From positions 10,147 through 74,146 of the IMG/VR virus record IMGVR_UViG_2881096153_000005: 64,000 nucleotides of DNA. One strand, given 5' to 3'. This DNA comes from a virus. Lineage: Duplodnaviria > Caudoviricetes. Positions 19,463-26,214 of the stretch are shown one piece after another. Under the pieces are notes generated by a model, which saw nothing but the letters and a program-made list of their open reading frames with translations, did no database searches and had not been told where the DNA came from. Position 1 is the stretch's first letter, and every line of letters starts with the position of its first letter. The position numbers were made by a program, and so were the translations under genes.

Positions 19463-19807
19463 CTAAGAATTTTTGAGCTGTTCAATTTGCTTTTGCTGCG
19501 ATTTTACTTTTTCCTCCAACATGTTTTTTGCTATGCGTTGAAGATCAAGTAGTTCATTGATCGGTATGGTCACATAACCAGCTTCTGGCTCAGCACTCAC
19601 AGTTGGTTTTGGTAGCTCTACTCCCCGAAATAGCCAATCCATAGAAACGTTGTATTTCTCACAGATTTTCATTGCCAAATCTACCGATGGGGTTGAATTC
19701 CCTGTCTCGATCTTGGAGATCTGCTGTCCTGACACGCCCAATTCTGCCCCAAATTCTGTAAGGTTTTTTTCGCCTCTCAGTTGACGAATTCGCTTTGAAA
19801 TAGACAT
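19463..19807 (-). CDS. XRE-family HTH repressor (CI-like)
   Basis: IRQLRGEKNLTEFGAELGVSGQQISKIETGNSTPS...KYNVSMDWLFRG; divergent from the early operon. Confidence 0.9.
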   Translation of the reverse strand: MSISKRIRQLRGEKNLTEFGAELGVSGQQISKIETGNSTPSVDLAMKICEKYNVSMDWLFRGVELPKPTVSAEPEAGYVTIPINELLDLQRIAKNMLEEKVKSQQKQIEQLKNS

Positions 19808-19935: not shown

Positions 19936-20286
19936 ATGCAAAATAACACAATAGGACAAGTGTCACAACACGTAGAATTACTTGATATGGCTGAACGGAC
20001 AGATCCAATGCTAATCGGCATTGAGGGTAAACGAGCGAGACGTCAAAGGATTAAGGAGCTAATTTCCACGGTTAAAGGCAATCGTGGTTGGCGGAAAGGT
20101 TTCACCGATCGCTATCCGGCCTTTGACAGTTTGTCCGGGAGTAGCTTACTAACTCTTGCTCAGCAAGGACGGACAGATGATCCAGAACTTCTGAAAGCAA
20201 TAGAAGAGTGGATACCCTTCGTGATTGAAACGCAACCTGACTGGTTCATCAAGCAAAATCACCTCAGAAACCCTCCAATCGTATGA
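19936..20286 (+). CDS. Hypothetical protein in Cro position
   Basis: First gene of the rightward operon; no motif recognised. Confidence 0.55.
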   Translation: MQNNTIGQVSQHVELLDMAERTDPMLIGIEGKRARRQRIKELISTVKGNRGWRKGFTDRYPAFDSLSGSSLLTLAQQGRTDDPELLKAIEEWIPFVIETQPDWFIKQNHLRNPPIV

Positions 20287-20612
20287 CCACTATTTCAATT
20301 TCCCTTCCGGAAGAGCAGCTCGAAAAGCAAGATATGCTTTTGGATGCGACGCAGGCACTTTTGGCCGAAATGCGTTCGCAGGTATGGTTGACCGAAGAAG
20401 AAGCAGCTGCACACTTCAAGGTAAGCAAAAGCACCTTTCGCCGGTGGCTTGTCGATGGGTGGATTCGGCACTACAAGTACGACGGTGTGTTGCGGTTCAA
20501 CCGTCGTGAGTTGGATGAAGATTTCAGCCGGAAAGCACTTGTGCGGGCTGCCAATGAGCCACTCCTACGAAAAATGCCTTTGCCTAACGCTCGTAAACAA
20601 GCTGCCCAATGA
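20283..20612 (+). CDS. Excisionase-like MerR/HTH_17 DNA-binding protein
   Basis: WLTEEEAAAHFKVSKSTFRRWLVDGWIRHYK....LRFNRRELDE. Confidence 0.8.
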   Translation: MTTISISLPEEQLEKQDMLLDATQALLAEMRSQVWLTEEEAAAHFKVSKSTFRRWLVDGWIRHYKYDGVLRFNRRELDEDFSRKALVRAANEPLLRKMPLPNARKQAAQ

Positions 20613-20739
20613 TATATATCGCTCTCTACATCGCTGCCTACCTGGGCGTGCTGGCCTTTGGCCGGTGGATCGTGCTTGACATGGCGAAAAACAACAATAA
20701 GTCAATCAATTAATTCACCTATACCTATCAATTAAGCAC

Positions 20740-21192
20740 ATGATAGAATTATTCACCCCTGTTACAATACCCCCGAGCGCCAGAGGAGTAGGCGCAGGTC
20801 TGCCAGCCTCGATCACGATCAGGACCACTGGTAAAATCAGTTTCAACCGCGACGCCATAAATACCTTTTTCCAGACAGGAGCTAAAACGGCGATCTTCGG
20901 AAAACTGGAAGAAGACATGCTCTTCATCCCGTCTTTGGAAAATGGCTACACGCTTCGGGCGAATAAGAGTGGTATTCTGGAATTCTCAAATATCACCCTG
21001 GCCGAAAAGCTGATCGCCGCTATTCCGAAACGGTTGCAAAATCAGGATGCCAACTGCTATCGCATCAGGATCGCTGCGCAGCCGATGGACATTGAGGAAC
21101 CGTCGCTGCCGAAAGGCACCAAAATATTTTCGATTCTGACCAGCAGCGCCGTGGCTTTACTGCCTCCCGCCAAAAAAACGGCAAAGTCATGA
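20740..21192 (+). CDS. Hypothetical protein
   Basis: Preceded by the CAATTAAGCA motif; coupled to the next gene. Confidence 0.65.
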   Translation: MIELFTPVTIPPSARGVGAGLPASITIRTTGKISFNRDAINTFFQTGAKTAIFGKLEEDMLFIPSLENGYTLRANKSGILEFSNITLAEKLIAAIPKRLQNQDANCYRIRIAAQPMDIEEPSLPKGTKIFSILTSSAVALLPPAKKTAKS

Positions 21193-21530
21193 GCAGAATC
21201 GCACAACGTCAAAAAAGCCTGTCCGAGAATATCGAAAGATTTCGGACGTCAGGCGGGAACGAAACAGCCGAGCGGGCTTCGCTTAGCTCCATTCTTAGGG
21301 ATATGCACTTTCTCGCAATCCCGCCGAGCTCACTGATTACGGTGCAGGATCGTAAAGCTAACCTACTGAATTTGTTGGATGATGCGGGTAGTGGCCGCAC
21401 GGTTGAGAGCATCGAGAGTGATAGGAAAGTTTCCTATCCCTGCGCCAGCTGCGGGAAACCGCACCCTACGCCTCAGGCCCGCGCCGCCCATGGACGTTTT
21501 TGCAAGAAAGGAGGGCGTGATGGACAATGA
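21189..21530 (+). CDS. Hypothetical protein with C-terminal CxxC...H...C zinc-finger-like motif
   Basis: CASCGKPHPTPQARAAHGRFC; ATGA-type coupling. Confidence 0.6.
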   Translation: MSRIAQRQKSLSENIERFRTSGGNETAERASLSSILRDMHFLAIPPSSLITVQDRKANLLNLLDDAGSGRTVESIESDRKVSYPCASCGKPHPTPQARAAHGRFCKKGGRDGQ

Positions 21531-21753
21531 GAATCAGGGCATTGTACGTGGGCTGCATACTCAGTTGCTTTTGTTGGCCGGAGCGAAGGCGCTGTTTCCA
21601 GAGATCTGCGAGAAGCTCACCCCAAACGACGAGAATGGGAAGCCGTTTATCAATATCTATACGATGAAGGAGCTGATAGATGCAGCCTTTGAAGCGATGG
21701 AAAATCAGGTACACAATGCACCAAATTACTTAGAGCGATGGGAAAATCTGTAA
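21520..21753 (+). CDS. Hypothetical protein
   Basis: ATG at 21520 overlaps the end of the previous gene. Confidence 0.5.
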   Translation: MDNENQGIVRGLHTQLLLLAGAKALFPEICEKLTPNDENGKPFINIYTMKELIDAAFEAMENQVHNAPNYLERWENL

Positions 21754-22028
21754 GTAAATCTGTCGAAGTGTGGATTCCTTCGGAGAACATCCGGGAAACG
21801 GAATATCTGTATGAGGTGACAGAAACGATTAGTGCCGATGGTATGCCTCGCATGGAGCAGGTGCATTTGGGGACGGTGTATCAGGATCCGAATACGCAGC
21901 ACTACATGGCCTATGTGGCGCGTCCTACTCCGGGTAAACATCTGGTAGCATTTTGGAACCTTGAAAGTGCCAAATGTGCATTGACATTCGAACTATGTAA
22001 GGGTCAAGACGATGGAAAATTACTATGA
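21738..22028 (+). CDS. Hypothetical protein
   Basis: Overlapping, coupled ORF in the early operon. Confidence 0.55.
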   Translation: MGKSVSKSVEVWIPSENIRETEYLYEVTETISADGMPRMEQVHLGTVYQDPNTQHYMAYVARPTPGKHLVAFWNLESAKCALTFELCKGQDDGKLL

Positions 22029-22267
22029 ACGAAGAGCCAGGAACAACGCCCGGACGAGCCTGGGCAAACGAGCTCTGCGCAAGGCTCGAACAGCGCTCGA
22101 AGCAATTTTCGTTTTGGGAAGCAGCCTACGAGGACTCCTTGGGTCGAACGTGGTGGGTCGTGTGGGACCGATGGGGCTGCACCCGAAACGGGATCAAGAA
22201 GAAAATGCAAAGCGCACTTAATTATTATCTCGAAACGCCCATTCCTGGGCAAGAGGAAAGTCAATAG
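22025..22267 (+). CDS. Hypothetical protein
   Basis: ATGA overlap with the previous stop. Confidence 0.5.
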   Translation: MNEEPGTTPGRAWANELCARLEQRSKQFSFWEAAYEDSLGRTWWVVWDRWGCTRNGIKKKMQSALNYYLETPIPGQEESQ

Positions 22268-22285
22268 ATAGAGGGTTTAGGATTT

Positions 22286-22545
22286 GGGGGGTGGGCTGCC
22301 TATCAGGCCACGGGGCATTCGGGAAAAGGCCCAGGTCCGGTTCGAGTCCGGGAATGCCACGAGTTTTTGATTATTGGTTAAAAGGAGGTTTGAAACGTGG
22401 GGGGTGGGCTGCCTAACAGGCCACGGTTGGGGGTGTCGGGACTATGGGCCCGCTGGCGATTCGCGATCGCCCATTCCGCAGGGTAGGACAGACCTACATG
22501 AGTGCCCAGGAACCCGAAGTGGAGTAACGTCCGCTTCGGGGAAAG
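22286..22545 (+). ncRNA. Candidate structured RNA: two tRNA-like mini-modules plus two hairpins
   Basis: 28-bp direct repeat (22286-22313, 22399-22426). Each copy is followed by an acceptor-like stem, a small hairpin and a 5-bp arm with a TTCG 7-nt loop. Further hairpins at 22483-22497 and 22513-22540. Confidence 0.55.
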
Positions 22546-22583
22546 GGGAAGTTTTTGTTGATTGTAATTACCGAAGCACCTAA

Positions 22584-24077
22584 ATGAGTAGACTAATCCG
22601 CATTGAAACCTCGGATGCGTATTCGAGGTTTCTGAACGCCTTTCGCCAGTACAATGCTAATTGCCCAGTGGAGACCCACGAGCGCAAACGTACCACGAAA
22701 GATGGAGACGCTTTCACGCAGACGGTTCCGAGGAAAGTTGGGATATTAAAAGAAAGCCTGAAAGTCACCTTTTACAACGTCCTGACGGAGTACATCTATG
22801 CCTACAATACGTCGATGAAGAATATGCCGGAAGGCATGTACACGCAAGCCGACCCGCCGGGCGTGCTGACGAACTGCGTTCACCTGGCCTGGCTGTGCGA
22901 TTGCAGCGACCGAACCGTTCGGAATCACCTGGATCGTTTGAGAGAATTGGGCTTCATAAGGACGAAATTTCGTGGCCGGAAACACGATTTTCAGCTGTGG
23001 ATAAGTAGCGAAATCCTGTTTGGCGGAGAGGGCGAAAATTTTGAAAAAATGCCCCAAAACGGCCTTCCTGAGGGGGTTTCTAAAAATTTTCCGCCTAATA
23101 ATACTCACAGAGAGTATATAGAAAAAGAAAAAGGGAATGCGGATTTGTTGATTAAACACGGAGAGAACATTTACGGAGAGAGGGGTCGGACTGACCAGGG
23201 GGACACAGCCCCATCAAACGCTTCGGAGAATGCCGAGCTGGAAGTACAGAGAGGGAGAGGTTCCGGCGGGGGGCGCGGCGAGATCGTGGCCGCAAACGCC
23301 GAAATGCGCCAAAGCCGGGCCAATGAAATGCTTTCGAAGCGAAATCCACGAACTCCACGCAATTTGCACCCGCGGCTCCGGGAAATGCTCGTCGAATTTT
23401 GGCTTTATGCCTGGAAAGTAGTCTACACTGGACGGGATTTCAGCCACGAACAACAGGAAAAGGCCATGCTTGCGATCATGGCCGGCGTTTACAACAACTT
23501 CTCCCCGGCCCGATCAGAGGCCGAATGGGTCGATTTTCAGACTTACCAACTGGGCAAGCTCGACAAGGCTGCCCGCTACTACGACCACCATCCGGATGCT
23601 TACAAACCTGATCCCTATGCGGTGCAGGTAGCTGGAAAGGGCTATTTCGATGCCGAAAACGTGAAAGGTTTTATCGGGATTGATGCCTGGGTGAAGAAAG
23701 ATGCCCTGAAAGATCTGAATAACAAAGCTGCCTATGCCGAACGGAAAGAAGCGAAGATCCGCCGGTGCGAAGGTCTGCTCCGGACTGCCCGGCGTGATTT
23801 TGAAAAGCTGCATGCTGGTATTAAGCCCAGGAAAGAAGTGGCCGAGAAGACCGAAATCGGGCTGTTTCAGTACTGGAAGGTGATCATGGAAGCGCAGGGA
23901 GACGCCTGGCTTCGGAAGTTTGCGAGCCAGTACATCGAGCAGAAAGGAAAGAATTTTGAACCGCCTAAGTATCTCAAAAGCAAACGTCTGCGCTACAAAG
24001 CTGGCGAAATGAAGCAGGAAGTCGTGGTGTATGTCGAAGACTACATGAATGATGGAGAAGGCTACTATACCGAGTAA
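22584..24077 (+). CDS. Putative replication initiator (N-terminal winged HTH)
   Basis: HLAWLCDCSDRTVRNHLDRLRELGFI wHTH, low-complexity linker, and typical position in the early region. Confidence 0.65.
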   Translation: MSRLIRIETSDAYSRFLNAFRQYNANCPVETHERKRTTKDGDAFTQTVPRKVGILKESLKVTFYNVLTEYIYAYNTSMKNMPEGMYTQADPPGVLTNCVHLAWLCDCSDRTVRNHLDRLRELGFIRTKFRGRKHDFQLWISSEILFGGEGENFEKMPQNGLPEGVSKNFPPNNTHREYIEKEKGNADLLIKHGENIYGERGRTDQGDTAPSNASENAELEVQRGRGSGGGRGEIVAANAEMRQSRANEMLSKRNPRTPRNLHPRLREMLVEFWLYAWKVVYTGRDFSHEQQEKAMLAIMAGVYNNFSPARSEAEWVDFQTYQLGKLDKAARYYDHHPDAYKPDPYAVQVAGKGYFDAENVKGFIGIDAWVKKDALKDLNNKAAYAERKEAKIRRCEGLLRTARRDFEKLHAGIKPRKEVAEKTEIGLFQYWKVIMEAQGDAWLRKFASQYIEQKGKNFEPPKYLKSKRLRYKAGEMKQEVVVYVEDYMNDGEGYYTE

Positions 24078-25558: not shown

Positions 25559-25707
25559 AACCAAACATTCTTCGGTCGGTTTTCCGGGAATTCTGAAAAA
25601 CCCCTCCGGAGCCTGGTCAGATTGGCCCAGATCAGCCCCCGCAGCACCAGGTGCAGCAGCTGGGCAACCAAATAATGTTCTGTTTTCCAAATAATCAATT
25701 TTTAGTT

Positions 25708-26214
25708 ATGACTTACACAATTATTGCCGAAAGAGGTGACACCAAATTAGCTTTAATAGGTCCTAGCCCTGTAACAACATTAAACCGAATTCCCCTTTTC
25801 GAAATACAGATTGATGGTGACGAGTCTTTTATGAACCTCACAAAAGATGAAGCCAAAATGCTAGTAGATGTGCTATTGCCATGGATTGACGAAGGTAATT
25901 CAGGGAAATTGAGAGGTCCAATAAAAAGACACGCCCTAAAAACTGATAAAGGTTACTTTGATAGAGTTTGGGCAGGCCAAAAAAACTTTGAATTGCGAAA
26001 AAATGACCGAGCCTTTCAGGTTGGTGATACATTACTTTTAAGAGAATATGATCCGGAAAATAGTAGCTATTCCGGTAGGGAAATTCTTGCTGGGGTCGAT
26101 TTTATTTTTTCATCGCTGCCAGGTCTACAAGATGGGTACTGTATAATGAAGATTTTTATCGAAAAACAATACAAAGTTACTCCGGTAGAGATAGAAGGTA
26201 GGTTAACCAATTGA
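25708..26214 (+). CDS. ASCH/PUA-like DUF3850 domain protein
   Basis: HALKTDKGYFDRVWAGQKNFELRKNDRAFQVGDTLLLREYD. Confidence 0.8.
   Translation: MTYTIIAERGDTKLALIGPSPVTTLNRIPLFEIQIDGDESFMNLTKDEAKMLVDVLLPWIDEGNSGKLRGPIKRHALKTDKGYFDRVWAGQKNFELRKNDRAFQVGDTLLLREYDPENSSYSGREILAGVDFIFSSLPGLQDGYCIMKIFIEKQYKVTPVEIEGRLTN

Follow-up and report, generated by a model that had tools for sequence, protein, structure and literature searches.

What occupies the one sizeable non-coding stretch in the tightly packed early operon of this prophage, and what might it do in front of the replication gene? The window analyzed here (the whole stretch of DNA, 64,000 nucleotides long) contains its early prophage region at 19.4-27 kb. 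A cI-type repressor gene with HTH_3 and Phage_CI_repr domains (19463-19807, minus strand) faces a rightward, tightly packed operon of small open reading frames (ORFs; 19936-22267, plus strand, as are all window features given below). The last of these ORFs ends at 22267, and a replication-initiator-like gene, rep (22584-24077, 497 amino acids), begins on the same strand 317 nt further on; this gap is the only non-coding stretch of any size in the operon. An earlier note had placed there two tRNA-like modules sharing a 28-nt leader, followed by a hairpin and a T run, and had offered three possible roles for them: RNase P/Z processing signals, decoys against tRNA-targeting defences, or a leader controlling replication. 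Our main conclusion is that the gap very probably holds a conserved, tRNA-derived, sense-strand RNA cassette that is tied to rep in temperate phages of the Spirosomaceae.

The rep product matches phrog_270 ('replication initiation protein') weakly (1.4e-5), and the N-terminal winged helix of its structure model (pLDDT 72) resembles the staphylococcal RepA_N initiators 4pql and 5kbj (Foldseek E of about 0.05). All 55 rep homologues come from Spirosomaceae-type genomes, namely those of Dyadobacter, Runella, Rhabdobacter and related metagenomes, from which we take the host to be a member of the Spirosomaceae (Bacteroidota). The window's genome contains five related prophages or elements: that of the window and those on contigs C39:400902, C39:88650, C11:393524 and C9:79425 (loci L047, L058, L059 and L054), each of which bears a distinct rep paralogue (46-54% identity) and a distinct form of the cassette. 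Within the first 17 codons of rep, a GAGGTTT-like 12-nt inverted repeat, GAAACCTCGGAT/ATTCGAGGTTTC, is found at 22605-22632; it was rejected as a Rep-binding palindrome, having been seen only in this window.

The gap contains two tandem units, at 22286-22360 and 22399-22479. Each begins with the 28-nt leader GGGGGGTGGGCTGCCTAWCAGGCCACGG, which matches exactly at 22286 and 22399, as had been claimed, and has no match in shuffled sequence; no further copy exists in the 5.8-Mb genome. The full repeat is 40 nt long at 85% identity (22274-22313 versus 22387-22426). Within it, a hairpin forms in both copies: GUGGGCUG-CCUAU-CAGGCCAC at 22291-22311, with one G.G mismatch and ending 2 nt before the acceptor stem, and GUGGGCUG-CCUAA-CAGGCCAC at 22404-22424. 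Exact-pattern scans for the leader hairpin in collections of genomes and of viruses returned no match, nor did blastn against a phage collection or a DNA search of 40 relatives; a homologous leader hairpin, with loop CUGCUUACUCAGG, is present upstream of the armless tRNA-like elements of L018, L020, L021, L050 and L054. The letters GGUGGGCU...CCAC are common to the leader hairpin region (22289-22311) and to the anticodon arm in the initiator-type tRNA-Met of a relative (L008:2220-2237).

Behind each leader lies a minihelix whose parts are those listed in the earlier note. Module 1 (48 nt, 22313-22360) has a 6-bp acceptor stem GGCATT/AATGCC (22314-22319 with 22353-22358) plus a G.A mismatch, a GGG/CCC hairpin (22321-22332) and a T-arm TCCGG-TTCGAGT-CCGGG (22336-22352), with a 5-bp stem and the canonical loop UUCGAGU; this proposed fold is also the minimum-energy fold, and measured against the tRNA pattern of a 7-bp acceptor stacked on a 5-bp T stem with a UUCRANY loop, the module departs at pair 1-72. 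A T run follows at 22364-22368. Module 2 (51 nt, 22429-22479) consists of a 6-bp acceptor stem GGGGTG/CATTCC with two G-U pairs (22430-22435 with 22472-22477), a CGGG/CCCG hairpin (22437-22452) and a T-arm GGCGA-TTCGCGA-TCGCC (22455-22471), in which an A-U pair replaces G53-C61 and the degenerate loop, UUCGCGA, lacks A58. Among the cuts folded, its proposed fold is of minimum energy for the 51-nt unit, and not for those of 49 and 79 nt. Both units have, between acceptor and T-arm, a single short hairpin with 6 or 8 nt in its loop, and neither has a D-arm or an anticodon arm with a 7-nt loop. The reading of the two as mimics of an acceptor plus T-arm with an arm missing holds: the D-arm and a proper anticodon arm are gone, and all that remains is the acceptor/T-arm minihelix.

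On the window alone, the case for these modules is weak, because the units are no more stable than shuffled sequence and have no ARAGORN or Rfam match. Their folding energies are not set apart from those of shuffles (z = -0.4, -1.4 and +0.3). ARAGORN reported 0 tRNA genes and no tmRNA in the window, and Rfam gave no match at the gathering score in the window and none up to E=10 in 22100-22700, both as the earlier note had expected. Since thermodynamics alone does not separate the modules from shuffles, support for them comes from the comparison of loci.

We gathered loci from genomes, IMG/VR and metagenomes by means of an alignment of rep homologues (A1). Wherever a recovered rep homologue reaches 31% identity or more, a cassette lies upstream of it on the rep strand, and the prophages that bear it all belong to the Spirosomaceae (Dyadobacter, Runella, Rhabdobacter, Persicitalea). 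Its order is as follows: a tRNA or tRNA-like element, the discriminator base N73 and 'CA', a hairpin H1 (GGUAGG-ACAGA-CCUAC), a linker, a second hairpin H2, a purine tail and the start codon. The T-loop is 24 nt from H1 in nearly all loci, H1 sits 2-4 nt past the 3' end of the tRNA or tRNA-like element in all of them, and 41-54 nt separate the H2 tail from the ATG in all; the H1-H2 linker is variable and sometimes contains an extra hairpin. None of the elements encodes CCA, and N-CA-GG follows all of them. Module 2 of the window occupies the conserved slot directly before H1, with the same slot and junction as in more than 20 loci and its closest form in L015, from a Persicitalea metagenome-assembled genome; module 1 is an additional copy upstream of it. 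A covariance model of the cassette, R1, found 14 sites in 7 of 151 genomes of the family, all 14 directly upstream of a rep homologue, and had no match in 141 genomes from other families of the order. Five R1 copies reside in the window's genome, three of them being the IMG/VR loci L018, L020 and L021.

Two sets of loci help to define the limits of this association. In L012, L022 and L041, an extra ORF of about 150 amino acids (starting with MATWHLGKIAYMKEDETG... in L012) stands between cassette and rep, and its start codon lies at the usual distance, of about 45 nt, from the cassette; what the cassette marks is therefore the beginning of the replication module and not rep as such. In the more distant L039 (2150-2500) and L040 (100-700), where rep identity is 28%, a T-arm-like sequence GCCGG-TTCGAGC-CCGGT lies upstream of rep with a different structure downstream, so that the tRNA slot may predate H1-H2.

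The stems of the cassette are maintained by compensatory change, and the covariation in homologues that the earlier note had proposed is indeed observed. In each of the 22 distinct slot elements, both the acceptor and the T stem are paired, every acceptor position shows 4-7 pair types, and covariation across these elements is confined to these two stems. In a model-based alignment of 23 sequences (A4), which was fitted to part of the structure and so leans slightly towards it, 93.4% of the cells of the T stem and the two H2 stems are paired, 15 of the 18 tested pairs have changed on both sides, and 0 of 500 shuffles did as well. When partners are slid by 1-3 columns as a control, pairing in A4 falls to 32-54%. 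The raw MAFFT alignment gives compensatory changes at 10 of 12 pairs. About 9% of the paired cells of A4 (T stem and H2 stems) are G-U or U-G, which places the structure on the rep sense strand.

H1 (22483-22497) is GUAGG-ACAGA-CCUAC in the window and is preceded by the conserved junction 'CAGG'. H2 (22505-22548) comprises two stems on either side of a purine-rich internal loop AGGAA/GAAA: a lower stem CCC/GGG (22505-07 with 22545-48) and an upper stem (22513-22523 with 22530-22540) closed by the loop GUAACG (22524-22529). An A/U-rich spacer (22549-22583) leads from H2 to the rep start codon. What had been described as an 11-bp hairpin with a T run is the upper stem of H2, paired at 10 of 11 positions, and the T run of the spacer at 22552-22556; the lower stem and internal loop of H2 had been overlooked, as had H1. 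Taken together, H1 and H2 of the window match none of 200 shuffles in fold energy, being more stable than all of them (z = -3.96), and both are recovered in 26 of 26 sequences, each folded alone. Across homologues, H2 has a lower stem of 3-5 bp, a purine-rich internal loop (GAA-like on the 5' side, GNAA or AGUA on the 3' side), an upper stem of 9-11 bp and a GURAYG loop. For H1, per-sequence folds were used, as the MAFFT and covariance model alignments misalign its 3' half; they reveal compensatory variants, such as GUAUGG/CCAUGC in L050, GGGAC/GUCUC in L041 and GUAGGC/GCUUAC in L052. We considered H2 as an intrinsic terminator and rejected this: 2-4 purines intervene between stem and U run, a terminator scan reports nothing there, and L012, L022 and the first units of L005, L007 and L014 lack the U run. 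Judged from these comparisons, H1-H2 is a well-supported structured RNA, not in Rfam and strictly tied to rep.

The content of the slot before H1 is far more diverse. Some relatives have genuine tRNAs there, a point absent from the earlier note: a tRNA-Phe(GAA) of 73.8 bits and an initiator-type tRNA-Met (fMet) of 60.9 bits with the Rfam model; others have weaker cloverleaves of 32-52 bits with irregular anticodon arms; and the window, L015, L018 and L020 have forms of 48-58 nt that lack a D-arm and go undetected by the Rfam tRNA model (RF00005), whose detection level was at least 29 bits. Only a 7-bp acceptor and a 5-bp T stem are always present among slot elements. As the slot ranges from Phe and fMet tRNAs to armless forms, the identity of the anticodon is dispensable.

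Units are also multiplied and mixed. L020 and L021 have two units each, with the same kind of leader hairpin as the window; L022 has the tRNA-like element of L023 and a second tRNA inserted at the CAGG junction; and the single unit of L054 consists of the body of the first L020 unit and the trailer of the second. A second complete mini-cassette, to which R1 responds weakly (18-31 bits), is present in L005 (2354-2467), L007 (2352-2467), L008 (2358-2467) and L014 (2356-2467). It is composed of a 44-47-nt minihelix (GUGCGGG...CCCGCAA), a covarying hairpin, a conserved hairpin ACGGCAAGGUGCCGU and a short hairpin followed by GGGUAAGGGAA. From the tandem copies and the L054 hybrid, we conclude that units are gained and lost by recombination. 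The two units of the window arose by tandem duplication of one unit.

Comparison with known RNA families assigned the cassette to none of them. The closest approach is that of a paralogous unit in L020 to mascRNA-menRNA (RF01684), full-length at 29.6 bits (E 0.033) for a gathering threshold of 42.5; the window units do not match this model, and the L020 match is a resemblance of shape, not family membership. The only Rfam signal for tmRNA among relatives, at 11.9 bits, falls short of the threshold of 47, and C4-type models have no match in the window or in its relatives. Ribozymes (HDV-like, hatchet, twister and others), riboswitches and Y RNA were set aside, with no Rfam signal even at E 1-10; for an HDV-type fold, the H1 loop is moreover too short. 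An origin as an att site or host tRNA fragment was rejected, as no host sequence lies within 3 mismatches of the 3' half of module 1 or of H1, and no host tRNA shares the 3' half of module 1. An antisense immunity RNA with flanking targets was likewise rejected: the only notable complementarity to the flanks is one of 10 nt (22242-51 with 22503-12), which is absent from 16 other loci. This stretch belongs to a pair of small coincidences at the end of the upstream ORF (22236-22251), which contains CGCCCATTCC, the same letters as at the 3' end of module 2 (22468-22477), and, overlapping it, TTCCTGGGCA, a perfect complement to the linker and 5' side of H2 (22503-22512). Both matches are probably due to chance, as neither is kept in other loci.

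Upstream of the units, a further element recurs. The motif AGAGGGTTTAGG, with core GAGGGTTTA, is located at 22270-22281, just past the stop codon of the upstream ORF, and a weaker second copy, GGAGGTTTGAAA, precedes module 2 at 22384-22395. In at least nine independent loci, the core is present as a single plus-strand copy upstream of the cassette (among the relatives, at L005:2144, L007:1870, L008:2007, L013:2260, L014:1754, L015:2289, L016:2224 and L024:2241). Its consensus, (T)AGAGGAGGGTTTA, lies right behind the last small early ORF's stop codon, 20-230 nt ahead of the tRNA slot. The motif may serve as a promoter, as a site for protein binding or as a signal for processing; a sigma-70 promoter and terminator scan of the gap, and a search for the Bacteroidota -33/-7 pattern, gave nothing usable. 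Between this motif and the first tRNA, L007 (1870-2104), L008 (2007-2195) and L014 (1754-1938) have 180-230 nt of additional conserved non-coding sequence, apparently structured, and their leader is therefore an array of about 500 nt made of several RNA modules.

How might such a cassette act? An acceptor/T-arm minihelix is all that RNase P, RNase Z and the CCA-adding enzyme require of a substrate. In the explanation that we favor, the early rightward operon would be transcribed through the cassette and presumably co-transcribed with rep, host RNase P would cut the 5' end of each minihelix, and RNase Z or an equivalent enzyme would cut the 3' end. The first cut would leave an upstream early mRNA that ends 2-5 nt past the leader hairpin, with its 3' end protected; the second would leave a rep mRNA that begins at CAGGGUAGG, 4 nt before H1, with its 5' end protected. 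H2, with its internal loop, its GUAACG loop and its fixed distance to the start codon, may then be a binding site or a regulatory element, by which rep expression is set at the level of translation or stability. Of the roles proposed in the earlier note, those of RNase P/Z signal and replication-control leader are compatible with the fixed position before rep and the constant junction with H1, and nothing specific was found in support of a tRNA decoy. That tRNA-like elements can create mRNA ends is established for the t-elements of plant mitochondria (PMC1920247).

We consider this whole explanation, a punctuation cassette joined to a regulatory rep leader, to be evenly poised between right and wrong, and its central step, action through RNase P/Z processing as judged from sequence features, to have slightly short of an even chance. 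Indeed, module 2 may be a poor RNase P substrate, with its degenerate T-loop and 6-bp acceptor; the sequence of H1 (GGUAGG..CAGA) is more conserved than a generic protective hairpin needs, which speaks against a protective role; and the four unpaired nucleotides before H1 are borderline for protection of a 5' end. If the GAGGGTTTA motif is a promoter, the units lie in the primary 5' leader and not between cistrons.

The main remaining rival, though an unlikely one, is neutral decay, whereby the units would be remnants of a tRNA gene that once stood before rep, and only H1-H2 would be functional. The earlier note had foreseen that the units might prove to be an ordinary tRNA pseudogene, and part of this stands: they derive from a phage tRNA gene, as the real tRNAs in the slot of relatives indicate. 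Escape from ARAGORN and Rfam, the degenerate T-loop of module 2 and folding energies no better than those of shuffles are also what decay would produce. It does not account for the two stems kept by compensatory change, paired in 22 of 22 elements with 4-7 pair types and many single steps from G-C to G-U, while D and anticodon arms were lost or replaced in many lineages. Moreover, armless forms recur across lineages and are duplicated (the window, L020, L021, L022 and the second units of L005, L007, L008 and L014), and the spacing to H1 is fixed, which again argues for maintenance. The same minimal tRNA mimicry, and the identity of the 28-nt leader in two copies whose bodies differ, could suggest small RNAs acting in trans once released, either as decoys or sponges for tRNA-directed defences and enzymes, or as immunity RNAs like P4 CI and P1 C4, the RNase P-processed phage RNAs that control replication genes and provide a precedent. 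We find this distinctly unlikely, given the strict linkage in cis and the constant junction to H1 and rep, which favor a cis role; there is, besides, no anticodon loop for anticodon nucleases, no C4-type match in Rfam, and the 10-nt complementarity is confined to the window when compared with 16 other loci. A fuller version, in which the minihelices would be released as stable, CCA-tailed trans RNAs of 48-51 nt (decoys, or a signal of copy number or immunity among the five prophages), and H1-H2 would be a leader that senses a protein or ligand and gates replication, is very unlikely in our estimate.

Two other readings dispense with a processed RNA. The hairpins adjoin a replication-initiator gene, and the repeat units and GAGGGTTTA motif could be protein-binding sites, so that an element acting as DNA (origin, single-strand initiation signal or Rep-binding site) comes to mind. 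This is highly improbable: the stems covary instead of keeping their sequence as iterons do, G-U (G-T) pairs make them strand-specific, relatives have genuine and presumably expressed tRNA genes in the slot, and the inverted repeat inside rep is unique to the window. As for coding, both leaders could be read as the start of small peptides (MGGGLPxRPR..., from TTG 22284 and GTG 22397), with frames open for 28-29 codons and GAGG-type motifs, within an SD-like GGAGG, 8 nt upstream. This idea is hardly credible, for homologues conserve neither start codon nor peptide (no start is in frame in L020, L012, L005, L024 and L016, and every frame is interrupted by stops in L020_A and L054), the units differ in length by numbers not divisible by 3, and genuine tRNAs leave this frame just as open; SD sequences, in addition, are seldom used in Bacteroidota.

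The preferred explanation, that of tRNA-derived punctuation before a regulatory leader, has several relatives among known systems. Small tRNA-like RNAs matured by RNase P are encoded in the early operons of phages P4 (CI) and P1/P7 (C4), upstream of replication or antirepressor genes; they differ from the cassette in acting by antisense pairing to repeated flanking targets, whereas no conserved complementarity was found here. A close likeness is with the t-elements of plant mitochondria and mitochondrial tRNA punctuation (Forner et al. 2007, PMC1920247), which are non-decoding acceptor/T-arm mimics in or beside coding regions and serve as RNase P/Z cleavage signals that make mRNA ends, as mapped experimentally in an organelle setting. 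The cassette, in contrast, is located in a phage operon, is known from its sequence, and adds the conserved H1 and H2 and a leader hairpin. It shares with t-elements a position at the boundary between RNA units, on the sense strand and at the same place in all homologous loci, and with both t-elements and mascRNA the retention, across 22 elements, of an acceptor/T-arm mimic without decoding parts. The mascRNA of MALAT1 and MEN-beta (RF01684) is an armless tRNA-like element excised by RNase P and RNase Z, an adjacent structure then protecting the new 3' end of the upstream RNA; mascRNA is, however, eukaryotic and unrelated by descent, and the protecting structure is a triple helix, against a simple hairpin in the cassette. 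In bacterial co-transcripts of tRNA and mRNA (thrU-tyrU-glyT-thrT-tufB) and in phage tRNA clusters, real tRNAs are removed from the downstream mRNA by tRNA-processing enzymes, while the window units have no tRNA function, only the minihelix being left, and a dedicated H1/H2 always comes next. The tRNA-like domains of tmRNA and of Y RNA (YrlA) are also acceptor/T-arm mimics with a reduced D region, but the cassette has no tag reading frame, pseudoknots or Ro-binding helix. Taken as a candidate family predicted by comparative analysis, the cassette appears to be a new RNA motif, well supported and of a known general kind.

If the processing model is true, organellar tRNA punctuation and the MALAT1-mascRNA arrangement would have a phage counterpart, in which a tRNA gene was reduced stepwise to the smallest piece recognized by RNase P and RNase Z and kept only to cut the transcript before rep. 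The family spans the whole series, from a working tRNA to a 48-nt minihelix. It also ties H1-H2 to a poorly understood replication initiator of Bacteroidota, a phylum in which post-transcriptional control is little known. For annotation, the 'empty' gaps of 300-500 nt in Spirosomaceae prophages are to be read as RNA, not as missed genes. Finally, 1.6 kb downstream of rep, the ORF at 25651-26214 encodes a 187-amino-acid protein with a DUF3850/ASCH domain, a PUA-like, RNA-binding fold, and this protein is a candidate partner of the leader RNA.
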